From: Thermodesulfobacteriota bacterium
GTDB taxonomy: Bacteria > Desulfobacterota > Desulfobulbia > Desulfobulbales > Desulfurivibrionaceae
Reading direction: 5' to 3'
Length of the DNA: 64,000 nucleotides
Assembly: GCA_040757055.1 (NCBI GenBank)
Contig: JBFLXY010000011.1
Location: forward strand, 19,099-83,098
Shown here: positions 1 through 54,823 of the stretch, piece by piece
Layout of the letters: each line of letters begins with the position of its first letter
Numbering within the stretch: position 1 is the stretch's first letter
Program-made: the position numbers and the translations under genes
The notes under the pieces: generated by a model
The model's input: only the letters and a program-made list of their open reading frames with translations
What the model was told of the DNA's origin: nothing
Database searches by the model: none

Positions 1-52
1 GCCGGTCGTCGTAAGTGGGATCAATCTTGGTGGTGAGGATCGCCTTGGTCAT
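1..52 (-). CDS. 5' end (first 17 codons) of a gene that runs off the left edge. N-terminus is MTKAILTTKIDPTYDDR. From memory this N-terminus belongs to a widespread PUA/SRA-like HNH-endonuclease-type family.
   Basis: ATG at 52-50 on the minus strand. The reading frame stays open to the window edge. A near-identical paralogous fragment lies at 1684-1785. Confidence 0.4.
   Translation of the reverse strand, partial: MTKAILTTKIDPTYDDR
4..52. repeat. Left copy of a 49-bp imperfect direct repeat (46/49 identical to 1737-1785)
   Basis: Direct comparison: ggtcgtcgtaAgtgggAtcaaTcttggtggtgaggatcgccttggtcat versus the copy at 1737-1785. The three differences are capitalised. Confidence 0.9.
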
Positions 53-94
53 GAAAAAACCGGGACACTTCCCGAAAAAACCGGGACACTTCCC
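53..94. repeat. Perfect 21-bp tandem duplication (gaaaaaaccgggacacttccc x2) directly upstream of the ATG of the left-edge gene
   Basis: Units at 53-73 and 74-94 are identical base for base. Confidence 0.95.
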
Positions 95-197
95 AATTAA
101 AAGCTCGGCTCTCGAAAACCAAGCACCAGAATCGATTGCTCACCCAGCAGGGTTCCAGGTTGCCAATTCACTCCTAGTCCTAAATCGAATTCAGTGA

Positions 198-1040
198 TCA
201 TGGCAACTCCTTGTTTTTCGGCATTTCAGTCAATTCAGCCGCCCTGGAATAAGGAATAATCGCTCCAGTATTGCACTGCAGCCAAATCGGCTCGCGGTGC
301 GAGGCGTCATAAATCTGCTTGTTGCTGGGAAAGGTCCCGGCCACAGCGGCAACGATTGCGGCCTCATCCGGAGTGAGGGGCGGGACGCTGGATACATCGG
401 CCTTGAAAATCTCGTCCACCAAATCACGGTAATTATTGAGCTGCGGCCCCATGGGCAGGGCGGCATATGAGGCTCCGGTAATACTGTGGCCGAGGTCGCG
501 GAAAGCAACCATGTCGGCGTACCAGAGATACTTCGCCGCATAGAGCATGCGGTCATCCTTCTTTAGTAGCGGCCGTTGCAGTATCTCGCTGAAAGCGTCG
601 AGGACAAGACGAATTCGAGGAATGGAAAATTCACGGTTACCGGTGTGCTCGTTGCACGCATGATCCAGCAGAAACGTCCGCAACAGGGTATCCATGGACT
701 TGCTTTGAATAACCCCCGATTCCCAGCGCTTGATACTGGCTATTCCAACATCCAGGGCCTCGGCCAGGGCCTGTTGCGAGAGGCCCTTACCCTGGCGCAG
801 ACCACGTATTTCTTCGCTTCCGAGCAAACCGACAGCCTGCCGGTAAGAATCGGCAAGCCTCTCCTGCATTTCCGCTGCTTCTTCAATGTCGGCAAGTTCC
901 AAGCCGCATGCCGCACATAGCTGCAATCTGGCGGTATAGGTGACATCAACCCCTTTAAGCTCGGCCCGCTTTTCAATCTCTATCATCCTTAGCTGCCCCT
1001 GGCAGTTCGGACACGTTTTGTTTTTCATTTGCTTATCCAT
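198..1040 (-). CDS. Hybrid antitoxin: MqsA-type zinc ribbon plus XRE helix-turn-helix, fused to a C-terminal Panacea (DUF4065/SocA-like) domain
   Basis: The N-terminus has CPNC...CAAC, followed by an HTH segment (GLSQQALAEALDVGIASIKRWESG) laid out like E. coli MqsA. The C-terminal half has KYLWYADMVAFRDLGHSITGASYAALPMGPQ, typical of DUF4065. The ATG lies 3 nt after the upstream gene's stop. Confidence 0.75.
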   Translation of the reverse strand: MDKQMKNKTCPNCQGQLRMIEIEKRAELKGVDVTYTARLQLCAACGLELADIEEAAEMQERLADSYRQAVGLLGSEEIRGLRQGKGLSQQALAEALDVGIASIKRWESGVIQSKSMDTLLRTFLLDHACNEHTGNREFSIPRIRLVLDAFSEILQRPLLKKDDRMLYAAKYLWYADMVAFRDLGHSITGASYAALPMGPQLNNYRDLVDEIFKADVSSVPPLTPDEAAIVAAVAGTFPSNKQIYDASHREPIWLQCNTGAIIPYSRAAELTEMPKNKELP

Positions 1041-1043
1041 AAT

Positions 1044-1415
1044 CTATTCCTCCGCCACTACTCTGGTGCAGATGTGAAGCGATACCAGATACAACGTCCC
1101 TTGCTGAAGAGAGAACTTGTAATACACACGACATTCAAACCTTTCGCACGTAACCGAGAAGGCAAATAAATCGTGATTGAGAATCAGCTTTTCGTAAGAT
1201 TTTTCGGGAGGTCGGTGTCCGGCATAATGTTCCGGCCCGGTGCTGTTCAACAGGTCCAGCAATACCAACTGCAACTCATGCCGGATCGAGTAGCCGAGAG
1301 ACATGGCGTCGGCCACGATAACTGCCGGCTCAACGAGCATGATCTTATTCTCATGCACGGCCTCCAAAGCAGCTTGAAGCTTACCGTTTAGTTCCTTATA
1401 GGAGGGTCTTGCCAA
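1044..1415 (-). CDS. MqsR-like toxin candidate (about 123 aa)
   Basis: The gene order is toxin first, as in mqsRA. The C-terminus RVYYKFSLQQGTLYLVSLH parallels MqsR's VYLKITV...LIVSFKE. The mid region SLGYSIRHELQLVLLDLLNSTGPEHY parallels MqsR's LGLDFDGMCNVIIGLSESDFY. The track start (TTG at 1451) sits inside the promoter -10 region. I prefer TTG at 1415, which is preceded by GGAGAG. Confidence 0.55.
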   Translation of the reverse strand: MARPSYKELNGKLQAALEAVHENKIMLVEPAVIVADAMSLGYSIRHELQLVLLDLLNSTGPEHYAGHRPPEKSYEKLILNHDLFAFSVTCERFECRVYYKFSLQQGTLYLVSLHICTRVVAEE

Positions 1416-1454
1416 GAATTCTCTCCAACCGAAACAGGCCAGCCTCGGCAATTC

Positions 1455-1483
1455 ATTATGGTATCAATTGATACCAGAGTCAA
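1455..1483 (-). promoter_or_regulatory. Sigma70-type promoter of the toxin-antitoxin operon: TTGACT, 17-nt spacer, CATAAT
   Basis: The minus strand reads TTGACT ctggtatcaattgatac CATAAT. The -35 is at 1483-1478 and the -10 at 1460-1455. Confidence 0.55.
1459..1476. promoter_or_regulatory. Perfect 18-bp palindrome (tggtatcaattgatacca) filling the promoter spacer; likely operator for the HTH antitoxin
   Basis: The sequence is exactly self-complementary and lies between the -35 and -10 elements. Confidence 0.5.
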
Positions 1484-1683
1484 GATTTAAAACCTGAGGA
1501 GGATTCCGGGGACATAATACTCATTTCCCGTCAACCGCTGTTTTCCCCATCCGCCCCAGGAATTGAGCACCCTATCCCCAGGGACAGGATACATAATTCC
1601 CGCCAGCCGGGAAAACATGAAATTTCAAAGCTTCGTTTCCGCAGAAAGTCCAGGCACGGCGAAACGTGGATAACGGGCCAGAA

Positions 1684-1785
1684 CTATTTTCCCACCCCGC
1701 AGATAGATGCGGGGGAATGGTACCGCTCCTCCGGCAGGTCGTCGTAGGTGGGGTCAACCTTGGTGGTGAGGATCGCCTTGGTCAT
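1684..1785 (-). pseudogene. Truncated 5' fragment paralogous to the left-edge gene (MTKAILTTKVDPTYDDLPEERYH, then an out-of-family tail and a stop)
   Basis: It shares 46/49 nt with 4-52. A stop follows after 33 codons. A 1-nt frame shift after YH would read FPRIYLR, which resembles the family continuation as I remember it. Confidence 0.5.
1737..1785. repeat. Right copy of the 49-bp direct repeat
   Basis: See 4-52. Confidence 0.9.
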
Positions 1786-1791
1786 GATTCG

Positions 1792-2361
1792 TCAAAACAC
1801 CCCATGCTCGGCGAGGATTTTGACCCCGATGGCGATGAGCACCAGGCCGCCGGCGATCTCGGCCCGGGCCCCCAGTTTGGAGGCGGCGCCCAGGATGCAG
1901 CCCAGTCGCAGCCCCACCGCGGTGAGCACCGCCGCCACGATGCCGATGATCGCGGCCGGCAGCCAGACGCTGACCCCGAGCACGGCAAAACTGAGGCCCA
2001 CGGCCAGGGAGTCGATGCTGGTGGCCACCGAGAGGGTGACCAGCATGCGGCCGCGGGTGGGGTCTGTTCCTTCCCTGGCCTCGTGCCCCTCGCGGATCGC
2101 CTCGACGATCATCTTGCCGCCGACAAAGGCGAGGAGGGAAAAGGCGATCCAGTGGTCCAGGGCCTCGATGGAGGAGCGGACCGTGAGGCCGCCCACCCAG
2201 CCGAGGATGTTCATTCCCCCCTGGAAGAGGCCGAAATGCCAGGCCAGGCGGAAGACCTGGCGGGAGTTCACCCGGCAGAGGCTGACTCCGGCGGCCAGGG
2301 CCACGGCAAAGGCGTCCACCGCCAGGGCCAGGGCGATGAGGAGGATGGCGGTCAGCGGCAT
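1792..2361 (-). CDS. mntP: Manganese efflux pump MntP (DUF204 family)
   Basis: MPLTAILLIALALAVDAFAVALAAG... with a second repeat SVATSIDSLAVGLSFA, and six hydrophobic segments. The start was trimmed to the ATG at 2361. Confidence 0.85.
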   Translation of the reverse strand: MPLTAILLIALALAVDAFAVALAAGVSLCRVNSRQVFRLAWHFGLFQGGMNILGWVGGLTVRSSIEALDHWIAFSLLAFVGGKMIVEAIREGHEAREGTDPTRGRMLVTLSVATSIDSLAVGLSFAVLGVSVWLPAAIIGIVAAVLTAVGLRLGCILGAASKLGARAEIAGGLVLIAIGVKILAEHGVF

Positions 2362-18838: not shown

Positions 18839-19762
18839 TCAATGGGGATTCTCTGCCAGGGTGCTCCAGAGGATGCCTTCCAGCAGGCCGGCATCGCTCA
18901 CGGTGAGCGTGGCGGCGCTGAGTTTGGTGAGCAGGTGTTCGTAGATGAGGGCGCCGGCCAGCAGGATCTCGCCGCGGCCCTGGTCAAGGCCGGGCAGCTG
19001 GTTGCGGCCCTGGGCGTCGAGCCGGGCCAGTTGCCCGGTCAGTTCCCGGAGGCGGGCCAGAGGCAGGCGATGGCCCTGGACCTTGCTTTCGTCGTAGGTA
19101 ATGAGTCCCAGGTCCAGGGCGGCCAGGGCGGTGGCGGTGCCGCCGCTGCCCACGAGCAGGGTGCCGGGGGGCAGGAAGGGCAGGATGGATTCGCTGACGG
19201 CCGCAGCGATGGCGGTGCGGACCGCGGCCAGCGACTCGGGAGTCGGCGGCGGGGTGGGCGTCAGGAAGCGCTCGGTGAGGCTGACCGTCCCGATGGCAAG
19301 GCTCGTTACTCCGCCCTCCCCAATGAGTTCGCTGCTGCCGCCGCCCACATCCGCCACCAGCAGATGGGCGTCCCCGCCCACGGCCTGACGGACGCCGGCT
19401 AGGGCCAGGGCCGCCTCGGTATGGCCGTCGATCACCTCGATGGGCTGGCCAAGAAGGCGGGCGGCCGGGGCGAGGAATTCGTCGCGGTTGGCGGCCGTCC
19501 GCAGGGCATGGGTGGCGCAGGCCCGGAGCCGTTGGGGGTGGTGTGCGTCGAGCAGGGCGGCAAAGCGGGCCAGGGCCTCAAGGCCGCGGGCCATGGCCTC
19601 CTGGTCCAGGCGTCCGGTGGTGTGCAGCCCTTGCCCGAGGCGGACGGTGATCAGCTTCTTAACCAGCGGCTGCATGGCACCGTTGGGCCGGAGAGTCGCG
19701 ATGAGCAGGCGGAAGCTGTTGGAACCCAGGTCGATGGCCGCATGCGGCGGGGGTTTTGTCAT
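18839..19762 (-). CDS. Ppx/GppA-family phosphatase (N-terminal actin-like domains only)
   Basis: [14 protein letters not shown]...DVGGGSSEL...[10 protein letters not shown]. Confidence 0.8.
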
Positions 19763-31896: not shown

Positions 31897-32490
31897 ATGA
31901 TGTTTCGTGCCGTTGGTCTTCTCATGGTCGTGCTGTGCTGCGGTTGCGCTGCGAATATTCCTCAGCCCATGGTGATCGAGCGGGATGGCATTGATGCCAT
32001 TGTGCTTACCGATGACCACAAGGTTTCCTACATCAAGCAGCAGGGGCATATCGACCGGATTTGCGCGGCGGTGGAGGCCGATGCGGTGGCCACGGACGAA
32101 TCGGGGTTTTCTTTGGGATTGTCTGCCCTGGGCAAGTCGGAACGGATCGGGGAGCATTCCGGAAGGGGGGAACTCTCTCTGGGGGGCAGGGATCCGCTGG
32201 TGCTCATTGCCCGCGAGTTTCTCTACCGGGCCTGCGAGATGACCAACAACCTCAACAGCAACGAGGAAAAAACCATCCAAGTCTACCAGATGTTCCTCGA
32301 TACCCTGGAGAAAATTGCCGAGACGCATCCTGCCTATGGAACAGCGCCGGCGGCAGCCGACGAACCGGAGCAGAAGCAGCGCAAGAAGGCAAAGAAGAAA
32401 AAGAACAAATGGGATGATGACGACAAAGACGATGACGACGACAACGATAACGACAAAGATGATGATGACGAAGACAAGGATGACAAGTGA
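31897..32490 (+). CDS. Probable lipoprotein of unknown function with a Lys-block/poly-Asp C-terminal tail
   Basis: Signal peptide MMFRAVGLLMVVLCCGC. Tail KQRKKAKKKKNKWDDDDKDDDDDNDNDKDDDDEDKDDK. AAGGTGG RBS. GC is lower than in neighbouring genes. Confidence 0.6.
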   Translation: MMFRAVGLLMVVLCCGCAANIPQPMVIERDGIDAIVLTDDHKVSYIKQQGHIDRICAAVEADAVATDESGFSLGLSALGKSERIGEHSGRGELSLGGRDPLVLIAREFLYRACEMTNNLNSNEEKTIQVYQMFLDTLEKIAETHPAYGTAPAAADEPEQKQRKKAKKKKNKWDDDDKDDDDDNDNDKDDDDEDKDDK

Positions 32491-32566
32491 TCTGCTGGTT
32501 GCCTGACGTGTGGCGCTTTTTGGAGAATACCATCACTCAATTAATATTGTCGGAGGAGGCTGAACA

Positions 32567-33748
32567 ATGAAAGTGCATTGGTCTGCAAGCGGAGTCGTGA
32601 TGCTGATGCTTCTGGCTGCGGGCAACGCCGAGGCGAAATGGCCAAAGGATTGCGGCAACGAAGGGCAGAAGACCTGCACCGGCCCTGCCCATTATGGCTG
32701 CAAGGACGACCTGGAGAAGTGCGATATGCCGGGGGCCAGGGATGTCTGCAGGAAGAAGGGGGAGTGCCCGTCTGAGTCGCGCAACAAGCACGACTGTCCG
32801 GATTGCGGCCATGATGGCCAGGAGCCCTGCCTCTTTAAAAAGTACTGCCACATGTGTGTTGATGGTCATCACGTCTCCCCGCAGACCGGGAAGTGCACGA
32901 AAACCGAAGGGCCGGTGGACACGATTGAATCCATGCTGCGAAAGGTGGACGGAGACCTGACCAAGGCGGAAAAGGACTGCCGCAAATTCGGAGAAAAGAT
33001 TGAAAATGGCTTGAACGACAAGGGGAAGGAAAAACTGCGGGATCTTCTTGATGCCGCCTCGGTGTCCAAGAAACTGGTGGACGACTCCCTGTACTATGGC
33101 GAACTCGCGGCCACCTGTTATGAAGAGCAGTTCAACGGCATTGTCTGCGGCGCGATCCCCTGGGTCAAGGGCTACAACAAGCTGGCGATCCGGCTCCTGA
33201 ACACGGATCATGACGACGATTTCAGGGACGTTACGAAGGAGGTGGGGAAAGACGCGGTCGAAATGGGGAAGAAATATGTCCAGTATTTCATTCACGGGGA
33301 TGCCTGTAAATACATGGTCGATCCGGTTGCCCGCGCCATGTGCGCCAGTGTCTATACCATGGTGGATGTTGCCAGGGATCCGGTGAACTGCGCAGTCAAC
33401 ACCGTCAAGGATTTGGCTGAAAAGAACAAGCAGGGTTCGGGGCAGAAGAAAAAGCCGGAGAAGGCTGATGTCAAAGATTTTGTCGCCAGCAATTGCTATA
33501 CGGTGGGGGTAATCTCGTTTACCCTGGCTGCCGACCAGGCATTGGCCGCGTTGACGGCGGAAACCGGGGAGGCAGTCGAGCTGCCGAAGGATGCCAAGGC
33601 GGTTCTCAAGGCGGTGAAGACGATTGCCAAGGCAAAGATCAAGTTGGAGCAGGGAGCCGAGGCCGCTGACAAGTTTGATGATTCCAAGGCAAAGCAGGTT
33701 ATGGAGCAGCACAAGAGTTGCGACGGCGTTCTGAAGTATCTCGATTGA
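32567..33748 (+). CDS. Secreted cysteine-rich protein of unknown function (393 aa)
   Basis: Signal peptide ending AGNAEA. There are 12 Cys in the first ~90 mature residues and 8 more in a helical-looking C-terminal part. Strong GGAGGAGG RBS. I recognise no family. Confidence 0.65.
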   Translation: MKVHWSASGVVMLMLLAAGNAEAKWPKDCGNEGQKTCTGPAHYGCKDDLEKCDMPGARDVCRKKGECPSESRNKHDCPDCGHDGQEPCLFKKYCHMCVDGHHVSPQTGKCTKTEGPVDTIESMLRKVDGDLTKAEKDCRKFGEKIENGLNDKGKEKLRDLLDAASVSKKLVDDSLYYGELAATCYEEQFNGIVCGAIPWVKGYNKLAIRLLNTDHDDDFRDVTKEVGKDAVEMGKKYVQYFIHGDACKYMVDPVARAMCASVYTMVDVARDPVNCAVNTVKDLAEKNKQGSGQKKKPEKADVKDFVASNCYTVGVISFTLAADQALAALTAETGEAVELPKDAKAVLKAVKTIAKAKIKLEQGAEAADKFDDSKAKQVMEQHKSCDGVLKYLD

Positions 33749-33807
33749 GTGTTTCCTGGCCAGGGGGAGGATGGCTTCCCCCTGGCTGGGGAAGGGGCGG
33801 AAGAAGG

Positions 33808-34239
33808 ATGACGGTCTTGCTGCGCCGTTGGCTGATGGTTTCTTGCGCTGTCCCGCTTCTGTGCGGATGCGTGGCGCCCGGACAGCCGCGGCCCGTTGGC
33901 GGCGACCGGGATTCCCACGGCTGCATCGGTTCGGCCGGGTATGTCTGGTGCGAGGCGAAGCAGAAATGCATCCGGGTCTGGGAGGAGCCGTGTGAGCCGG
34001 GAGACAAGATCACGGCCTGCTACGGCTGCGAAGGCCTTGGCCCCATTACCGTCCAGTATTTCCCTGGCGATGGCGCGTCCATCCTCGTGAATGGCAAGGC
34101 GTACCGGCTTGAACGGGCGATTTCCGCCTCCGGCGCTCGCTACGAAGGGGAAAATATCATGATCTGGGACAAGGGCGGCACGGCGCGTCTTGTTCTGGAT
34201 GGCGGGGAGTATTCCTGCCGGGTGAGCGCCTGTCCATAG
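33808..34239 (+). CDS. MliC-family (membrane-bound lysozyme inhibitor of C-type lysozyme) lipoprotein with an extra Cys-containing N-terminal module
   Basis: Lipobox LLCGC. [24 protein letters not shown] matches E. coli MliC's [24 protein letters not shown] almost exactly. The start was trimmed to MTVLLRR. Confidence 0.75.
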   Translation: [143 protein letters not shown]

Positions 34240-46036: not shown

Positions 46037-46654
46037 GTGGAAAAGATTGTGGATTGTCGGGGCATGCTCTGCCCCCAGCCGGTCATCGCGACCCGGGACG
46101 CCTTGGCGGCCATGGCGCATGGGGTGCTCACGGTGGCGGTGGACAACGAGGCGTCGCGCAGCAATGTGGAGCGCTTTGCCGTCAGTCAGGGATGCGCGGT
46201 GGCGGTGGCGGAAGAAGCCGGGGTGTTCCGGCTGACCATCACCAAGCCGGGTGGCGCCATGCCGGCGCCCGACGCCGCTGCGGCCGAGTCCTATACCTGC
46301 CCCATCCCGGCTGCCGCCGGCGTGATCTACGTGATTCCCTCCGACACCATGGGGCACGGCGACGACGACCTCGGCCGGCTGCTGCTGCGCGCCTTTGTTA
46401 AGACCATCCGGGAGATGCAACCGCGGCCGGCGGCCATCTTCTTTTACAATACCGGGGTGAGGGTCACGGCCGCCGATTCCGACCTCATCCCGCCGCTCAA
46501 GGAGCTGGAGGCGGAAAAAGTGGCCATCTTCTCCTGCGGCACCTGCCTTGATTTTTTCAACCTCAAGGAGCAGCTGCTGGTCGGCAAGGTCACCAACATG
46601 TACGAGATCATGGCGGCCATGAGCACCGCTGCCAGGGTCGTGAGCCCTTACTAG
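46037..46654 (+). CDS. yedF: Selenium-metabolism protein YedF (TusA/SirA-like N-terminus plus DsrE-like C-terminus)
   Basis: RGMLCPQP (CPxP motif), then SDTMGHGDDDLG...FFYNTGV...FSCGTCLDFF...VGKVTNMYEI. GTG start. Confidence 0.8.
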   Translation: MEKIVDCRGMLCPQPVIATRDALAAMAHGVLTVAVDNEASRSNVERFAVSQGCAVAVAEEAGVFRLTITKPGGAMPAPDAAAAESYTCPIPAAAGVIYVIPSDTMGHGDDDLGRLLLRAFVKTIREMQPRPAAIFFYNTGVRVTAADSDLIPPLKELEAEKVAIFSCGTCLDFFNLKEQLLVGKVTNMYEIMAAMSTAARVVSPY

Positions 46655-46670
46655 GTGCAGGTCTCCGCCG

Positions 46671-47825
46671 ATGTCTGCCCTCCGGTCGCCGGTCTATCTC
46701 GATAACGCCGCCACCTCGTTTCCCAAGCCGGCTAATGTGGCGGCAACCATGGACCGCCTGCTGCGCTCCACCGCCCTGAGCCCGGGCCGTTCCGCCCATG
46801 CCTTTTCCCTGGCCGCCGGCCGGGAGATCTTTGCGGCCCGCGAACTGCTCGCCGCCTTTTTCGGCTGCCCCGATTCGAGCCGGCTGATCTTCACCGCCAA
46901 CGTCACCGAGGCGCTCAACGTCGGGCTCTTCGGGCTGCTCAAGGATGGCGGCCATGTCATCGCCACCGGCATGGAACACAACTCGGTGATGCGCCCCCTG
47001 CGCCATCTCGAGCAGCTGGGCCGCATCGCGCTTTCGGTGCTGCCCGCCTCGCCGGCCGGCGAGACCGACCCGGCCGACTTGGCCAAGGCCTTGCGGCGCG
47101 ACACCCGGCTCATCGTGGTCAATCACGTTTCCAATGTTACCGGCACCGCGGCGCCGCTGGCGGAAATCGCCGCGCTGAAGGGCGGGGCGCTGCTGGTGGT
47201 GGATGCGGCCCAGTCCGCCGGAGTCTTTGAACTGGACGTGGCCAAGCTCGGCATCGATTTTTTCGCCTTCACCGGCCACAAGGCGCTGCTGGGGCCCACC
47301 GGCACCGGCGGCTTTGTCCTGGGGCCGGACATCGAGCTGCCGCCCTTCAAGATGGGCGGCACCGGCAGCGCTTCGGAGTTCGAGGTGCAGCCGGACTTCG
47401 CGCCGGACTGCTACGAAGCCGGCACCCCGAACACCCTGGGTATTGCCGGCCTGGCCGCCGGAGTGGGTTTTGTAAAGGAAACAGGTCTTGCGGCCATCCG
47501 CGAGCATGAACAGGCTCTCACCCGCCGTTTTCTCGACGGCCTGGCGCAGATCAGGGAGGTAACGGTTTACGGGCTGCCGGCCGGCGCCAACCGGGGGGCG
47601 GTGGTTTCCTTGCGTCTGGCCGGAAAGGGGATGGACGAGGTGGCGCACCGGCTGGACCGCGAGTTCCGGATACTGGTGCGGGCCGGGCTCCATTGCGCGC
47701 CGCTGGCCCATCGCACCATCGGCACCTTTCCCGAGGGCACGGTGCGGGTTTCCTTCGGCTTCTTCAATACCATGGCCGAGGTGGACTGCTGCCTCGACGC
47801 CCTGGCCCGCATCGCCGCCAGCTGA
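46671..47825 (+). CDS. Class-V aminotransferase, cysteine desulfurase/selenocysteine-lyase family
   Basis: YLDNAATSFPKP...VNHVSNVTG...DAAQSAG...FTGHKALLGPTGTG...RAGLHCAP. Confidence 0.8.
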   Translation: MSALRSPVYLDNAATSFPKPANVAATMDRLLRSTALSPGRSAHAFSLAAGREIFAARELLAAFFGCPDSSRLIFTANVTEALNVGLFGLLKDGGHVIATGMEHNSVMRPLRHLEQLGRIALSVLPASPAGETDPADLAKALRRDTRLIVVNHVSNVTGTAAPLAEIAALKGGALLVVDAAQSAGVFELDVAKLGIDFFAFTGHKALLGPTGTGGFVLGPDIELPPFKMGGTGSASEFEVQPDFAPDCYEAGTPNTLGIAGLAAGVGFVKETGLAAIREHEQALTRRFLDGLAQIREVTVYGLPAGANRGAVVSLRLAGKGMDEVAHRLDREFRILVRAGLHCAPLAHRTIGTFPEGTVRVSFGFFNTMAEVDCCLDALARIAAS

Positions 47826-47834
47826 GGGAAAACC

Positions 47835-48842
47835 ATGCAGCGCGCCGACGAGTCCGCGGGCAGTTCCGCCTTCCGCCGCCTTACCCCGGATGCGGTTCTC
47901 GGCGTGGTGGAGCAGGCCCTGGGCGTCCGCTGCACCAACCTCTGCCGGCCGCTGGCCAGTTACATCAATCGGGTCTACGAACTGGAGCAGGAGGACGGCA
48001 GCGGCCTGGTGGTGAAGTTTTACCGGCCGGGCCGCTGGAGTCTGGCAGCCCTGCAGGACGAGCATGATTTTCTGCTGGAACTGGCCGGCCGCGAGATTCC
48101 GGTGATCGCTCCCTTGCCGTTTGCCGGCAACGGGACGCTGGGCCAGCATCAGGGGGTCTTTTTTGCGGTCTTTCCCAAGTGCGGCGGCCGCAGCTTCGAC
48201 GAGTACAACGACGAACAGTGGCTGGAGATCGGCCGCCTGCTCGGCCGGGTGCATGCGGTGGGCGCTGCCCGGCCGCCGGCCGGGCGTATCGTCATGCGGC
48301 CGGATCGCTCCACCCGCGACCACCTGCGCTATCTGCTCGCGGGCAACTTTCTCCCGTCGGATCTGGCCCAATCCTTCAGCGCGCTGGTCGAGACCATCAT
48401 CGCCGAGATTACCCCCCTCTTTGCCGGGGTGGAGCTGATCCGCATCCATGGCGACTGCCATTTTTCCAATCTCATCTACCGTCCGGGCGAGTCGTTCTAT
48501 CTCATCGATTTTGATGACATGGCCTTCGGGCCGCCGGTGCAGGATTTCTGGATGCTGCTGCCTGGTTACCGGGACGAGACCCATGTCGAAATCGATCTCT
48601 TCCTCGAAGGGTATGAGACCTTCCGCGATTTCGACCGCCGCACCCTCCGGCTTATCGAGCCGCTCAGGGCCATGCGCTTCATCCACTACACGGCGTGGTG
48701 CGCCTGTCAGGTGGCAGAGGAAGGGTTGTCGCGGGTGGCGCCGGACTTCGGCAGCCGCGACTACTGGCAGCGGGAGATCGACGACCTGGCCGACCAGCTG
48801 GAGCGTATCCGGTCGGCCGTCCCGGCGGGAAATTCTCTCTAG
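47835..48842 (+). CDS. srkA: Stress-response Ser/Thr kinase SrkA (YihE/RdoA) homologue
   Basis: Collinear with E. coli YihE: SYINRVYELEQEDGSGLVVKFYRPGRWS...HGDCHFSNLI...IDFDD...PVQDFWMLL...IEPLRAMR. Confidence 0.75.
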   Translation: MQRADESAGSSAFRRLTPDAVLGVVEQALGVRCTNLCRPLASYINRVYELEQEDGSGLVVKFYRPGRWSLAALQDEHDFLLELAGREIPVIAPLPFAGNGTLGQHQGVFFAVFPKCGGRSFDEYNDEQWLEIGRLLGRVHAVGAARPPAGRIVMRPDRSTRDHLRYLLAGNFLPSDLAQSFSALVETIIAEITPLFAGVELIRIHGDCHFSNLIYRPGESFYLIDFDDMAFGPPVQDFWMLLPGYRDETHVEIDLFLEGYETFRDFDRRTLRLIEPLRAMRFIHYTAWCACQVAEEGLSRVAPDFGSRDYWQREIDDLADQLERIRSAVPAGNSL

Positions 48843-49071: not shown

Positions 49072-51717
49072 CTACCGCACGTTGCGAAAGTTGGTGAGCG
49101 AGTTGGGGTGGTGCATCTCCTCCTTCATTTCCCTGGTGTGGCAGAGGGCGCAATTCTTGTTGGCGCCCAGCGGATACGGATTGCCCTGATACTGGCGCGG
49201 GATGATGTTGTCGCGTTCCGCGTCGTAGGGGTTGGTAGCCGGGTAGACCGCATGGGCGCTGTTGTGGCAGGCCGCGCAGGGGATGCCCATGTTGTCGGTC
49301 CGCCGGCGGAAGAGGTCGGCCTCGCCCGCGGTCCACTGGTTGAAGGCGGTGGATGAGCCGGGCGGCTGGAAATCCACATGGCAGCCCAGGCAATCCGGCT
49401 GGCTGATCCATGCCTGGCGCGGCTTGATTTGTGCCGGTTGGTCCACGCCTACCGGCTTGAGCAGGGCGAGCCGTCTGGCTGCGGCCGTTTTGCCGGCCTG
49501 CTGTTCGGCCATGAGCAGGCTCAGGGCATGGTCCTCCATCACACCGTGGCAGGCGGTGCAGTCGAGACCCAGTTCGTTGTGGATGCCCCGATAAAAACGG
49601 GTGGCTCCGTGGGGAGCGCCGTCCTGATGGCAGAAGAAACAGGCGTCGGCGCCGCGGCCTTTGAGGATGGGGGCGTGGAAGCCGTGCATGGCGGCGGAAA
49701 GGCTCAGCCCCTTGGGGTTGCCCTTGCCGTCGCGCGGGTCCGGGTGGCAGAGCTGGCAGCGCAGGGGTTTGCCCTCTCCGGCCTGTCTGAGCAGGGTGGT
49801 TTTGGCGTAGCGGTCGTGCACGCCGAGGATGTTGTCGGCGGTTTCAGGGCTGAGTCCGCTTCCCGCCTTGCGCCACGGCCCGCCATGGCAGTTGCGGCAG
49901 CCCCATTCCGTAGAGACCGGAGCCACCATGGTGGCGGTGGCGAGCATGGCGCTGCTGGCCCGGTCCACCGCGGCGAACGTCACCAGCGGATAGGGCAGAT
50001 AGCCGCCGCCCTCCTGATACGGCGCCAGTGGTACCTCGGTGGCGCTGAAAGTGCGGCCGTCGGTTGCCGGCCGCATCAGGCCGCTGGTGCCGTTGCCGGT
50101 GGGGCCGGTGTTGGGCGGGATTTCCCGGTCGGTGAGGCTGGCCGCGTGGTTCCAGAACTCCACCTGGCCAGCGGGGTTGGTCGAACCCGCCTCCACTGTG
50201 TAATGGATGTCGATGCCCTCGCTGATCACCTGCGGCCTGGCACCGCGCTTGATGAGCATGGCGTGGATGGTGTTGCCCGGCGGACGCAGGCTGAAGCGGC
50301 TGTCGCTGTCGCTGATGGTGTGCATGCCGTATTCGTTCCAGGCCAGCAGCACATACTCCGCCGCGGCCGGGTCAAAGGGCGGCACCTCGTGCTGTTGCGG
50401 TGTGATCTCCGCCGCCGCGGCGGGTTTCTCCCGTTGTTGGAGCACCTCGAAAATATAGGCCGCCAGGGCTTGCTGCTCCGCGGCGTTGCCGGGGAAGGCG
50501 GGCATGGCGCTGTTCAGGTCGCAGAGGCCGCCGATGCGGGCGGCCAGGGCGTCGATGCTGTTGTAGCCCTTGGTGAGCCGGATGATGTCGCGGGTGGGGC
50601 CGCCAATGGAGTGGCAGGAGGCGCAGGTGAGGAAGAAGAGTTCCCGGCCGGCTGCCAGCCGGTTCTGCCCGGTGATCTCCCTGTGCTGCACCCAGCGGGC
50701 GTTTTTGAGCAGGCCCGCCTGGGCCACCTTGCCGATATCCTTCTTCAGGATGGAGTGGGAATAGATGTGGCCGTGGATGGTATAGGGCCGGCGGCTGCCC
50801 TCCCGGATGTACTCGAAGGCGCCGAGGTAGCAGAGGCCGACGGCCATGAGCAGCACGGCCAGCGAGCGGGTGGCGGACTGCGGCAGCCTGATGGTCATGA
50901 TGAGACCGCCGACGATGAGCAGCGGCGCGGTCCACAAGAAAATCTTGATGGCGAGGAGCAGTTCCGGCGGCTGCTGGGTCAGCATGGCGCGGATCGGTTC
51001 CGGCAGGGCCTGGACGTACCACCAGGTGGAGGCAACCAGCAGGGCAAAGGGGGCCAGCAGCCAGAGCGCGCAGTAGCGCACCATCCGCAGGCGGAAGGCC
51101 GGGTCCTTGAGGGCCGTGGCGGTGAGGAAACCGTAGAGGCCGGCGAGGATCAGGGCGACGAAGGTGCGGAAGAAGAGGGAGGGCCAGAACGAGGGGTTGA
51201 AGAAGCCGTCCCAGAAGTTGCCGGTGGCAAGCCACCGGCCGGGGGTAAGCATGAAGTCGATGATGCCGTTGATGACAAAGAGCGAGAGCCAGGCGAAGAG
51301 GAAGTAGAGCCAGCCAAGAATCAGGTGTTGGCGCCGGTTCATGCGGCCGAAGGTGTAGTAATAGATGAGGAGCGAGACGATCTCGGCCACGAAAAAGACC
51401 CACTCGATGGCCCAGCCGAAGACGAAGTTGTGGATGAGAATCGAGGTGGTTGCCGGATTGATCAGCGAGATGACGAACCAGATGCCCACCCCGGTCATGC
51501 CGCCCAGCACCATGGTGACGAGCAGGAAGAAACGGGTGTGGGTCTTGACGTAGTCGACGATGGCGGTGGAGTTCTGCCGGTAGCCGTACCATTCGGTCAG
51601 CACCAGGAAGAGGCCGCCGCCGATGGCGAAGTGGGAGATGAAGACGTGGAAGACCGCCATCAGGGCGATGGTGAGTCCGCCGCCGAACAGGGTAAGTTCC
51701 CAGATCGGGTAGTTCAT
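49072..51717 (-). CDS. Cytochrome bd subunit I (CydA)-like membrane domain fused to a c-type multihaem domain (8 CXXCH motifs)
   Basis: The N-terminal ~330 aa have about 8 hydrophobic helices and CydA-like motifs (AVFHVFISHF; GMTGVG; AIEWVFFVAE). CXXCH motifs lie at residues 365, 607, 654, 693, 720, 776, 814 and 856. Confidence 0.85.
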   Translation of the reverse strand: MNYPIWELTLFGGGLTIALMAVFHVFISHFAIGGGLFLVLTEWYGYRQNSTAIVDYVKTHTRFFLLVTMVLGGMTGVGIWFVISLINPATTSILIHNFVFGWAIEWVFFVAEIVSLLIYYYTFGRMNRRQHLILGWLYFLFAWLSLFVINGIIDFMLTPGRWLATGNFWDGFFNPSFWPSLFFRTFVALILAGLYGFLTATALKDPAFRLRMVRYCALWLLAPFALLVASTWWYVQALPEPIRAMLTQQPPELLLAIKIFLWTAPLLIVGGLIMTIRLPQSATRSLAVLLMAVGLCYLGAFEYIREGSRRPYTIHGHIYSHSILKKDIGKVAQAGLLKNARWVQHREITGQNRLAAGRELFFLTCASCHSIGGPTRDIIRLTKGYNSIDALAARIGGLCDLNSAMPAFPGNAAEQQALAAYIFEVLQQREKPAAAAEITPQQHEVPPFDPAAAEYVLLAWNEYGMHTISDSDSRFSLRPPGNTIHAMLIKRGARPQVISEGIDIHYTVEAGSTNPAGQVEFWNHAASLTDREIPPNTGPTGNGTSGLMRPATDGRTFSATEVPLAPYQEGGGYLPYPLVTFAAVDRASSAMLATATMVAPVSTEWGCRNCHGGPWRKAGSGLSPETADNILGVHDRYAKTTLLRQAGEGKPLRCQLCHPDPRDGKGNPKGLSLSAAMHGFHAPILKGRGADACFFCHQDGAPHGATRFYRGIHNELGLDCTACHGVMEDHALSLLMAEQQAGKTAAARRLALLKPVGVDQPAQIKPRQAWISQPDCLGCHVDFQPPGSSTAFNQWTAGEADLFRRRTDNMGIPCAACHNSAHAVYPATNPYDAERDNIIPRQYQGNPYPLGANKNCALCHTREMKEEMHHPNSLTNFRNVR

Positions 51718-52790
51718 TGCCGCACCTCCTTGGCGCTCTGCCAGGCGAGTCGGAGCATGTAGGCGACGATGCCGAGGCCGGCGGCGAGGATCAGGAAGAA
51801 GAGGAGCATGGGCGAGTACTGCGGCGCCACCGGCAGGTCAGCCGGATGAAAATAGGGGGCCAGATAGGCGTGGCGGGCCAGATCGCGCACCAGGATCATC
51901 AGCAGGATGGTGACGGTCATGGCGGCGGTGGCGTGCCAGAGACGCTCCCGCGCGCCGAATTTGATGCAGTAGAAGGAGCCGACGAGGGCCCCGGCAAAGA
52001 GCAGGGTGGCGAGCCAGTTGCCGCCCACAAAGATACGCAGGACAGGCTTGGGCAGCGAAAGGAGGAAAACGATGCCGATGGCGATCTCCACCATGGTGGC
52101 GTAAGTGAACCAGGCCAGGCCGTTTTTGATCCGGGCCCGTCGCTCCTCTTCGGCCAGCTCTTTCTGGAAGTGGGAGAGGAGCGCCAGAAAGAGGCCGCCG
52201 GTGGCGACGGCGGCGACCATGAAGTGGAGATAGCGGGCCACAAGGGTCGGTTCGGCGAGGTTGAGGAAGAGGCCGCCGGGATGGCGGAAGTAGGCGGGCC
52301 AGGCGGCCGGGGTCTGCATGAGGGTGAGATTGTTGGTGAAGAAGAAGCCGATCAGCAGCATGCAGGCCAGGCTTGATCCCAGCAGCCAGCGGCGGCGGCC
52401 GGGGCTCCAGGCGTCGAACTGGAATTTGTGGATATAGGCGAGGCCGTAGGCGGCGATGAGGAAGAAGATCACCGAGAGCCAGAAGGCGCCCATGATGATG
52501 GAACTGGTGTAGATGAACTGGCCGTAGAGCACCTGCAGGAAGAGGAAAGGCGCCACCCCGAAGTTGACGGTGAAGGCCACGGCATAGGTGATCTTGGTGC
52601 TGAGGTCGCGGCAGAGGGCGTGGCTTTTCGCCGGGCTGGCCAGTTGCTTGACCAGGGTGATGACGCCGCAGCCGATCATGATGTTCATCACCATGATGTG
52701 CAGGAAGAAGGTGAGCAGAAGCAGGAACTGGAACCAGCCCCAGGGAACCTGGAGCGGATCCGGCGAGGGGATGAGGGCGGCAGGGTCCAT
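51714..52790 (-). CDS. Polytopic membrane protein, partner of the CydA-like/cytochrome c fusion
   Basis: About 9 hydrophobic helices. Its stop overlaps the downstream ATG (ATGA). The start was trimmed to MDPAAL, which is preceded by AAGGAGG. Confidence 0.7.
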   Translation of the reverse strand: MDPAALIPSPDPLQVPWGWFQFLLLLTFFLHIMVMNIMIGCGVITLVKQLASPAKSHALCRDLSTKITYAVAFTVNFGVAPFLFLQVLYGQFIYTSSIIMGAFWLSVIFFLIAAYGLAYIHKFQFDAWSPGRRRWLLGSSLACMLLIGFFFTNNLTLMQTPAAWPAYFRHPGGLFLNLAEPTLVARYLHFMVAAVATGGLFLALLSHFQKELAEEERRARIKNGLAWFTYATMVEIAIGIVFLLSLPKPVLRIFVGGNWLATLLFAGALVGSFYCIKFGARERLWHATAAMTVTILLMILVRDLARHAYLAPYFHPADLPVAPQYSPMLLFFLILAAGLGIVAYMLRLAWQSAKEVRQ

Positions 52791-53099
52791 GACGGCCTCC
52801 TTCGTGTCGGGATGCGGGACAAGGGTGTGCTCCCATCTTGGCACAGCGAAGGCGGGGCGTCAAATGGAAAGCGGGGCGGGAGGATGCCTGTCTGACAGGC
52901 CTTTTTCTGAGCCTTGCCCGAGGGCGGAAGCGGGCGGCGGCCCCGGCCGGAAGGAATTTGCTGAAATCACCCCAAAGGGCCGGATTGGGCGATCCGGAGG
53001 GACGGCAGAAGGCGTTTTTGCGGTTTTGTGCCGAAATGCCGTTGTTTTTCTCTGCGCACGAAACGGCCTTGTCTGTCAAGGGAATAAAAAAAAGAAGGG

Positions 53100-53482
53100 C
53101 GTTTTTTTGATCCCTCCGGAAGCACGATGAAAAAAATTTTTGAGGGAGAAAATCGGAGTTTTTAAGAGATTGAATGAGATCGGGAGAGATACGGTGATAT
53201 TTTAGTGATTCATTAACATTCGGCCGGACAGAAGGGCGGGAGCTAATCCCCTGAAATTGAGCGGGAAAGGGGGCGGCGGAAAAAGCGGCACAAAATAGGG
53301 GCGTTAGTGGGGTGATGCTTTTATCTCCTTGAAAAAAAGCGGAACTTTCGCTGTTGAAAACTCCGCGGTGGCCTGAATGAAAATCTGCCAAAACCGCTTT
53401 TGACACCATAACGGCTTTCTAATAAAACCCCCCTATCGCAGTTCCGGGGGGTCTGTTTCTGGAGAGCCGAGCAGGGGGAAGA
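53100..53482 (+). promoter_or_regulatory. AT-richer dnaA upstream region (promoter/leader; possible origin-proximal DNA)
   Basis: GC drops locally, with tracts such as aaaaaaattttt, tttttaagag and tgatattttagtgattcattaacatt. A hairpin acccccc...ggggggt lies at 53427-53452. I found no perfect DnaA box. Confidence 0.25.
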
Positions 53483-54823
53483 ATGTACTGGCAGGATGTG
53501 AGAGAGGTATTGCGTCGTACCCTACCCGAAAGTGTCTTTGCCTTGTGGATCGAGCCGTTGCAGTGCCGTCAGGCGGATCGCCAGGCAGTGGAGCTGGCCG
53601 GGCCGGACCGCTTCTTCTGTTCCTGGGTAGCGGACAACTATCAGAAGGAGATTGAGGCCGCTCTGGTGGAGGCCGGATATGCCGGGGTGGCGGTGCGTTT
53701 TGCCGTAGGCTCCGGCGAGGCGGATCGGGGCGGGAATATGCCTGCCGCCCATGGCGAGCAGCTGCGGTTGCCGGCCATGCCCGAGGGACGCTCCCATGTG
53801 CGGACGCTCCATCCGCGCTACACCTTCGACGAGTTCATGGTGGGCGACTCCAACGCCCTGGCTTTCTCTGCCTGCGAGGCCATTGCCAACGGCGATACCG
53901 CCGTCGGCCCCTGTGTCTTCATTCACAGCGGCACCGGACTCGGCAAGAGTCACCTTACCCATGCGGTGGCGCATCATCTCCTCAACCACTCGCCGAACCT
54001 GCGGCTGCACTATCTCACCACCCAGCAGCTCACCGCCGAGGTGGTGCGGCACATCAAGAACAATACCATGGAGCACTTCAAGGAGAGGTATCACCGCCAG
54101 TGCGACGTGCTCCTCATGGAGGACGTGCATGCCCTGGCCGGCCGGAGCAAGACCCAGGCCGAGCTGGCCGAGGCGGTGGACGTGCTCATGGAGGCAGGCC
54201 GCCGGATCATCTTCACCGGGGCCATGGCGCCACGGGACATCCCCAATGTCGATGTCGGCGTGCGCTCGCGCCTTTCCGCCGGGCTGATCACCTCCATCAA
54301 CCCGCCGGACCAGCGGACGCGGCGGCTGATCATCCAGCGCAAGGCCCGTTATCACAACCTCGCCCTCACCGATGAACTGACCGACTACCTGGCCGAGCAC
54401 GTCAAGGGCGACATCCGCCGGGTTGAGAGCGCCATCATCGGCCTCAAGGCCAAGACCAACCTGCTCAAGACCACCGCCACCCTGGAGATGGTCAAGGAGG
54501 TGGTGGCCGCCATCGTCGGCCAGCACCTGCGCCTTTCCTCGGCGGTGATCCGCGATTTCGTCGCCCGCCAGTTCCAGGTGCCGCTGGCGGAGTTGCAGTC
54601 CAAGTCGCGGAAAAAGTCGGTGGCCTTTCCGCGCCAGGTCGCCATGTTCCTGGCGCGGAAGCTGACCGACGAGGCGCTCTCCGACATCGGCAAGGCCATG
54701 AACCGCGACCACTCCACGGTGGTGCATTCCATCCGGGTGATCACCGAGGCCATCGCCCGGGACGGCAGCATCCGCGGTCAGATCGATCATCTTTCCGAAC
54801 GGATCATCAAGAAGTATCAGTAA
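53483..54823 (+). CDS. dnaA: Chromosomal replication initiator DnaA
   Basis: TFDEFMVGDSNALA...SGTGLGKSHL...REIEGAL-type region IRRVESAI... and a C-terminal DNA-binding domain (RQVAMFLARKLT...IGKAMNRDHSTVVH). Confidence 0.95.
   Translation: MYWQDVREVLRRTLPESVFALWIEPLQCRQADRQAVELAGPDRFFCSWVADNYQKEIEAALVEAGYAGVAVRFAVGSGEADRGGNMPAAHGEQLRLPAMPEGRSHVRTLHPRYTFDEFMVGDSNALAFSACEAIANGDTAVGPCVFIHSGTGLGKSHLTHAVAHHLLNHSPNLRLHYLTTQQLTAEVVRHIKNNTMEHFKERYHRQCDVLLMEDVHALAGRSKTQAELAEAVDVLMEAGRRIIFTGAMAPRDIPNVDVGVRSRLSAGLITSINPPDQRTRRLIIQRKARYHNLALTDELTDYLAEHVKGDIRRVESAIIGLKAKTNLLKTTATLEMVKEVVAAIVGQHLRLSSAVIRDFVARQFQVPLAELQSKSRKKSVAFPRQVAMFLARKLTDEALSDIGKAMNRDHSTVVHSIRVITEAIARDGSIRGQIDHLSERIIKKYQ

Follow-up and report, generated by a model that had tools for sequence, protein, structure and literature searches.

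A cytochrome bd subunit I-like protein fused to an eight-haem cytochrome c region, and its bd-fold partner, in a Thermodesulfobacteriota bacterium

How would a relative of cytochrome bd subunit I receive its electrons if it had no quinol site and carried a chain of c-type haems behind its membrane domain? Two overlapping genes raise this question in a 64,000-nucleotide stretch of DNA from a Thermodesulfobacteriota bacterium of the Desulfurivibrionaceae (GenBank assembly GCA_040757055.1, contig JBFLXY010000011.1, forward-strand positions 19,099 to 83,098), called the window below and numbered from its first letter. The larger gene, at 49072..51717 on the (-) strand, encodes an 881-amino-acid protein (A) with a bd subunit I-like membrane domain of eight transmembrane (TM) helices and an eight-haem c region. 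The gene upstream of it, at 51714..52790 (-), encodes a 358-amino-acid protein (B) with nine TM helices, the fold of a bd subunit and no CxxCH motif. A preliminary description, made from the letters of the DNA, had given both genes with these lengths, approximate helix numbers and an ATGA overlap, and had proposed a bd-derived module, lacking a Q-loop, in which electrons enter or leave by a periplasmic haem c wire. The same proposal was made for a family of the cytochrome bd superfamily by Murali, Gennis and Hemp in 2021 (bioRxiv 10.1101/2021.01.16.426971; Murali et al. hereafter), and the sequence tests reported here agree with it. We assign A and B by their sequence features to that family, as OR-C1a and OR-C1b, and we put at roughly 0.55 the probability that they form an O2-reducing enzyme whose bd-type di-haem site is supplied with electrons by periplasmic cytochromes, by way of the haem c chain.

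The membrane domain of A (amino acids 1-307; 50797..51717, (-)) has the fold of CydA. Its eight TM helices were found both by hydropathy and in an AlphaFold model of A (predicted local distance difference test score, pLDDT, 83). The Pfam family Cyt_bd_oxida_I (PF01654) scored 34.2 bits (cut-off 26.2) on amino acids 17-214, with the match spanning profile positions 6-213 of 418 only, and the same family scored above its cut-off in all 50 aligned homologues. Among solved structures the best relative by sequence was the Geobacillus CydA chain 5doq_A (E = 6e-6 when A was searched as a single sequence and 2e-7 for the family profile), and the ten best Foldseek matches of the model were all CydA chains. 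Alignments made by eye for the preliminary description, to the His19 region, GVATGL and AIEGLMAFFLE of CydA, were reproduced by HMMER and hhalign; the latter is unreliable past helix 6 against single E. coli sequences, because the alignment there runs into the Q-loop.

Aligned with E. coli CydA (taken from NC_000913.3), residues H24, E105, E112, H131 and S145 of A correspond to H19, E99, E107, H126 and S140. Across 80 species loci, whose A proteins are 46-77% identical, H24, E105, E112 and S145 were present in every locus and H131 in 79, and the paired glutamates E105 and E112 have six residues between them, as in the OR-C1a family. On this alignment A retains those CydA residues that bind the two high-spin haems and make up the cytoplasmic proton channel. 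The quinol side of the protein is different. All 80 loci have F183/R184 at the position of CydA His186, the alignment gave no counterpart of Met393, and just 13 residues make up the TM6-TM7 loop, where CydA has its Q-loop, so that A, as read from its sequence, has neither a Q-loop nor either ligand of haem b558. Both absences, like the retention of His19 as H24, bear out what the preliminary description had supposed. Three further histidines of the membrane domain, outside the residues tabulated for CydA or OR-C1a, are also conserved: H29 (79 of 80 loci; codon 51631-51633), H60 (80 of 80; 51538-51540) and H96 (77 of 80; 51430-51432). The short loops of A carry six lysines and arginines inside and two outside when the topology of CydA is adopted, with the N-terminus outside; with eight helices, the C-terminal haem region therefore lies in the periplasm, the compartment in which haem c is attached.

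One ligand of the CydA di-haem site, Glu445, required separate treatment. At its periplasmic end helix 8 of A carries an invariant motif, F301-E302-x-x-R305-E306-x-x-R309-R310-P311-Y312, in which E302, R305, E306, R309 and P311 show complete or almost complete conservation across the species loci, and its segment E306-x-x-R309-R310-P311-Y312 can be likened to E445-x-G-R-Q-P-W of E. coli. HMMER aligned the motif with AEVGRQPW of Geobacillus CydA (i-Evalue 270), and a sub-profile of TM8 was best placed on residues 442-454 of E. coli CydA, FVAEYGRQPWAIG, with a score equalled by 64 of 1000 shuffles. Single-helix sub-profiles have low power against E. coli CydA: those of A TM8 and B TM1 fell on the expected motifs, those of B TM5 and A TM1 off them. 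Because neither score is significant alone, we regard E306 as the probable, and no more than probable, counterpart of Glu445.

Beyond the membrane domain, A contains exactly eight CxxCH motifs, starting at amino acids 365, 607, 654, 693, 720, 776, 814 and 856, in precise agreement with the positions and sequences listed earlier. They account for 16 of the 17 cysteines beyond amino acid 340; when the region after that residue was shuffled 20,000 times, no shuffle gave more than two such motifs (mean 0.02). Haem 1, at C365xxCH369, belongs to a class I cytochrome c domain (amino acids 353-426; 50440..50661, (-)) that gave Cytochrome c6 and Cytochrome_CBB3 matches and resembles cytochrome c6 and the CcoP-type domain. 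Here M405-P406 is invariant, and M405 is the probable distal Met ligand of haem 1. A haem-free beta-sandwich follows (amino acids 455-600; 49918..50355, (-)), predicted from the strands of the AlphaFold model (pLDDT ~90) and devoid of CxxCH, and then a seven-haem region (amino acids 604-870; 49108..49908, (-)) with the motifs that start at 607 to 856. Eight additional conserved histidines in the latter (634, 678, 681, 713, 730, 822, 869 and 870) could act as distal ligands and would be enough for bis-His ligation of all seven haems. The sequence of A showed no CxxCK motif and nothing else to indicate a catalytic haem c.

The last five motifs of A (amino acids 691-868) form a module like domain II/IV of MtrC/MtrF, matched by PF22113 at 34.3 bits (cut-off 30); 47 of 50 homologues matched as well. 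With its beta-sandwich followed by five haems, this part of A resembles half an MtrC. Proteins of the MtrC/OmcA type are outer-membrane lipoproteins with two repeats of beta-barrel and five-haem module, ten haems in all, whereas A has one PF22113 module, fused to an inner-membrane oxidase-like domain. The NCBIfam decahaem models scored far below their cut-offs on A, and the haem region gave only weak sequence matches to solved multihaem structures.

B had no Pfam or NCBIfam match, its sequence profile gave chance matches only in the PDB, to sulfotransferases, and just one of 50 family members produced a weak profile match, to subunit I. An AlphaFold model of B (nine TM helices, pLDDT 82) was matched by Foldseek to bd CydA or CydB chains, subunits I or II, in each of the top 20 places (TM-score, the template modeling score, 0.56-0.74). 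Profile-profile alignment (hhalign) of B with A gave 222 collinear columns over helices 1-6 (E = 1.2e-4), and the profile of B also aligned with residues 12-212 of E. coli CydA. Because these three comparisons agree, we conclude that B has the bd-subunit fold and is a distant paralogue of CydA-like descent.

In these alignments H31 of B falls on CydA His19, and R186-Y-L-H189-F-V-A-S falls on K-F-V-H186-T-V-A-S of CydA, while I108 and G116 stand at the positions of Glu99 and Glu107; E. coli CydB has no histidine at the His19 or His186 position. The B family comprises 2168 clusters at 50% identity with E <= 1e-3. A set of 139 diverse full-length representatives shares 31-50% identity with B; in this set H31, H189 and Y115 were invariant and M298, R302 and R306 were present in 136-138, while D303, which is Glu445-like, was not conserved. 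No CxxCH occurred in the family (118 and 139 sequences), and the TM6-TM7 loop of B, again of 13 residues, leaves it without a Q-loop. On the alignments, then, B keeps counterparts of both CydA His19 and CydA His186, the latter lost from A, and B may bind haem. A more specific proposal, which we advance tentatively and hold to be rather less probable than its opposite, is that B carries one or more haems of its own and is no inert CydB-like scaffold. In that case His189 and Met298 would ligate a six-coordinate haem b, the equivalent of b558, and His31 might bind another haem; the paralogue would have taken over the b558 site, the complex would hold up to ~12 haems, and B might offer a second, quinol-side entry for electrons beside the haem c chain.

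These features place the pair in the family defined by Murali et al. as OR-C1a/OR-C1b. OR-C1a was described there as an eight-helix CydA that lacks a quinol site and is extended at its C-terminus by a haem c region, which bears up to eight CxxCH in Desulfovibrio-type members, and OR-C1b as its adjacent paralogue; cytochrome c was proposed as the electron donor of OR-C, by a periplasmic haem c route. A combines bd subunit I homology with the loss of the quinol site, CxxCH motifs after eight TM helices, paired glutamates and an adjacent paralogue, and its key residues carry the same numbers as those of the OR-C1a reference in their Table S6 (H24, E105, E112, S145, H131 and F183). Desulfobulbus mediterraneus G494DRAFT_01863, listed in their Table S7 as an eight-haem OR-C1a, is one of our species loci (L038) and is 52% identical to A over its full length. 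B is a CydA paralogue without proton-channel glutamates and without CxxCH; the OR-C1b sheet of that work holds haem-free 'hypothetical proteins' from Desulfovibrio and Desulforhopalus, and our assignment of B was made by features, not by placement in the published tree. Nothing in A-B excludes membership. The differences are that eight helices are stated for OR-C1b and nine are predicted in B, that the H19- and H186-type histidines of B are not tabulated, and that E445 is entered as '-' where we find the probable E306. The 2021 survey is of the kind that the preliminary description mentioned for bd-like proteins fused to haem c domains. Later papers cite OR-C as a class only or use its profile hidden Markov model, and literature searches on the locus tags of cultured carriers, and on expression, returned nothing. 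The present analysis adds the fold of B, its invariant His19- and His186-type histidines together with Met298, the probable Glu445 motif of A and a domain map of the haem region.

The architecture is widely shared. A protein identical to A (P0001) has been deposited from a Thermodesulfobacteriota metagenome-assembled genome, where NCBI and JGI name it 'cytochrome ubiquinol oxidase subunit I'; the identical B protein (P0121) is a 'hypothetical protein' at NCBI. More than 100 full-length homologues of A, ~880 amino acids long and 51-84% identical, come from Desulfurivibrionaceae, Desulfobulbaceae, Thiovibrio, Desulfonema and others. Exactly eight CxxCH motifs were counted in 115 of 115 full-length homologues and in 79 of the 80 species loci. 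A scan of one genome per species found a relative encoded in at least 590 genomes, mostly of Desulfobulbia, Desulfobacterales, Desulfovibrionales and Desulfuromonadales; other phyla contributed a few. Cultured carriers include Desulfogranum mediterraneum DSM 13871, Desulfonema magnum, Thiovibrio frasassiensis and Pseudodesulfovibrio aespoeensis (Daes_0497).

In 73 of the 80 loci B immediately precedes A in the same orientation, and clustering of all flanking open reading frames in the 80 revealed no other conserved neighbor. The 4-nt ATGA overlap by which B precedes A here (51714..51717, (-)) is also the commonest spacing, seen in 37 of 73 related loci. AAGGAGG precedes the ATG of A and that of B alike: the Shine-Dalgarno sequence of A is at 51725..51731 (-), within the 3' end of B, and that of B, GAAGGAGG, is at 52796..52803 (-), 5 nt before the ATG at 52790. 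A and B are translationally coupled. An upstream GTG (52844) that would make B longer lacks a Shine-Dalgarno sequence and is itself part of a promoter-like element (52835..52863, (-); TTGACG, a 17-nt spacer ending in TGC, and CAAGAT) that lies ~45 nt upstream of the ATG of B. This putative element is kept in the window and in two aligned relatives (L001 and L002); it was seen only by aligning them, and a sigma-70 consensus scan of the region gave no match. In six loci away from contig edges no B was found within 6 kb of A, and four of these (L015, from Desulfonema magnum, L021, L040 and L069) carry rubrerythrin or ferritin-like genes beside A, with all key residues and the eight CxxCH motifs of A kept.

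Set beside canonical CydAB (qOR1-3; PDB 6rko and 5doq), the pair has in common the fold of both subunits and, in A, the di-haem-site ligand and proton-channel residues. Canonical subunit I has nine helices, a Q-loop and the haem b558 ligands, whereas A has eight helices and neither of the latter; CydAB lacks the covalent haem c region of A, and the A-B pair has no CydX-type small hydrophobic open reading frame on either flank. The second subunit differs too, since canonical enzymes have a CydB-type subunit II (PF02322) and B is CydA-like, with two haem-ligand histidines. Closer in this respect are CydAA' (qOR4a/4b) and OR-N, in which two CydA paralogues are paired and the proton-channel glutamates are present in the 'a' subunit but missing from the 'b' subunit, as in A-B; the 'b' subunits of OR-N also keep the H19 and H186 counterparts, as B does. 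Unlike A, qOR4a still has the quinol site, and OR-N, unlike A-B, has no fused haem c and stands in operons with other donor modules. The Qrc, Tmc and Hmc complexes of sulfate reducers and CcoP of the cbb3 oxidase are alike in concept, as known generally and from the supplementary text of Murali et al., in that a periplasmic haem c module links the cytochrome c pool to a membrane core. Their cores (NrfD-like, haem b/FeS or haem-copper) have no homology with that of A-B.

The anatomy of A-B is a matter of observation; the electron-transfer and catalytic steps, including the direction of flow and the acceptor, are what we infer from it. In the mechanism that we favor, A-B would sit in the cytoplasmic membrane with the C-terminus of A in the periplasm, where low-potential cytochromes of the c3-type pool would load the seven-haem chain. 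Electrons would move from that chain to the His/Met class I haem c, a stand-in for haem b558, and from there to a high-spin di-haem site that H24 and E306 would hold among helices 1-4 and 8 of A. O2 would be reduced to water at this site with cytoplasmic protons delivered through E112, S145, H131 and E105, and, as with cytochrome bd, the reaction would both detoxify O2 and add to the proton-motive force.

Two features lead us to prefer these steps. Proton-consuming chemistry is favored because the proton channel, needless for plain electron transfer, is strictly conserved. His/Met haems such as b558 are of high potential, and bis-His multihaem chains are of low potential; because the ligand type changes along the chain, flow from the haem chain towards the bd site is favored. 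The rubrerythrin or ferritin-like neighbors in the four loci lacking B were counted as further support. Several points weigh on the other side. The hosts of the family are mostly strict anaerobes, and the housekeeping neighbors of the pair in the window give no functional context. The alignment to Glu445 is non-significant by score, and Table S6 of Murali et al. gives no E445 counterpart for OR-C1a. The role of a haem in B, if one is bound, is left unexplained by the mechanism. Finally, no report of an OR-C member being purified or assayed, and no data on activity, spectra, mutants or expression, turned up in the searchable literature to 2026, in keeping with the preliminary description, which knew of no biochemical characterization.

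The best placed of the alternatives, which we nevertheless think unlikely, keeps the architecture and the direction of flow and changes the substrate of the di-haem site to another small oxidant (NO, H2O2 or peroxynitrite), making A-B a detoxifying reductase fed from the periplasm. Reviews report that canonical cytochrome bd also handles these three compounds, the hosts are anaerobes, and the rubrerythrin genes near A in the four loci without B point in general to peroxide or oxidative-stress defence. No sequence feature sets this substrate choice apart from O2 reduction, however, and A has kept the residues that form the O2-reducing site and the proton channel serving it.

The conserved histidines of B and the MtrC-like part of A could also be read as a quinone-linked conduit with no terminal reductase, comparable to CymA, CbcL, ImcH or Qrc/Tmc. 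Menaquinol would be oxidized at a haem b of B (H189/M298) and the electrons would leave by the eight-haem chain of A to periplasmic or extracellular acceptors, or the flow would run in reverse. That B has the His186-type histidine of the quinol-facing b558 in a matching motif (RYLHFVAS and KFVHTVAS), that H31 and H189 are found in 139 of 139 representatives and M298 in 136-138, and that the family is common among metal and sulfur respirers all speak for such a role. Yet A and B both lack a Q-loop, with 13-residue TM6-TM7 loops in each, the pair has neither an outer-membrane conduit nor any other respiratory gene linked to it, and the strict conservation of the di-haem ligands and proton-channel residues of A would go unexplained. 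We consider a conduit of this kind improbable, a little more so than the change of oxidant.

An ordinary quinol-oxidizing cytochrome bd is what the public product names at NCBI and JGI imply and what the PF01654 match might suggest. That match is partial (positions 6-213 of 418), the Q-loop, H186 and M393 are absent, and B is not CydB by sequence; canonical CydAB is ruled out because the quinol site of CydA is missing from A, and we give the annotated function very little credence. Last, an artefact of frameshift-joined reading frames, misassembly or chance CxxCH motifs in a GC-rich frame found no support, though high-GC windows do hold many long spurious open reading frames, and it is excluded, to the point of near certainty, by conservation of the ~880-amino-acid, eight-CxxCH architecture in the homologues and species loci counted above, by the shuffles and by an AlphaFold model of A that is confident across the junction.

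The genes around the pair in the window are of housekeeping type: hisC-like, cmk, a TusA-DsrE fusion, a class V aminotransferase, an APH-family kinase, dnaA and an amine-oxidase-type flavoprotein. dnaA (53483-54823, (+)) lies next to the pair, upstream of it and divergent, an arrangement found again in eight related loci; the cumulative GC skew keeps its sign there, so the origin of replication may lie elsewhere. The 640-bp spacer between B and dnaA (52845-53482) is of lower GC content and contains blocks kept in Desulfurivibrionaceae loci L004-L008, L011 and L056. One block, the 12-mer AGTTTTCAACAG, is within a T-tailed hairpin with an 11-bp stem (53339-53366, (-)) that has no gene upstream of it on that strand. 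The spacer showed no DnaA-box cluster beside dnaA and no Rfam match, and no Rfam family was found in the whole window. At 46037-48842 (+) the TusA-DsrE fusion, the class V aminotransferase (cysteine desulfurase-like) and the APH-family kinase stand in a run that may be a sulfur or selenium relay cluster. GC content is 0.54 at window positions 1-2000 and 0.57 at 32001-34000, compared with the usual 0.62-0.71.

The cytochrome bd superfamily comprises three families; for OR-C, which is one of them, the evidence of function comes from sequence alone. The locus described here is not a new kind of system; what the analysis supplies is a set of residue-level, testable predictions for A and B. The label 'ubiquinol oxidase' misleads metabolic reconstructions, in which a quinol oxidase is then wrongly inferred. 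Eight-haem OR-C, carried by at least 590 species genomes, is widespread, and most of the species that encode it respire sulfate, sulfur or metals and are regarded as anaerobes. If O2 is indeed reduced by these proteins with electrons from periplasmic cytochromes, this would be an overlooked way for such bacteria to survive or exploit traces of O2.

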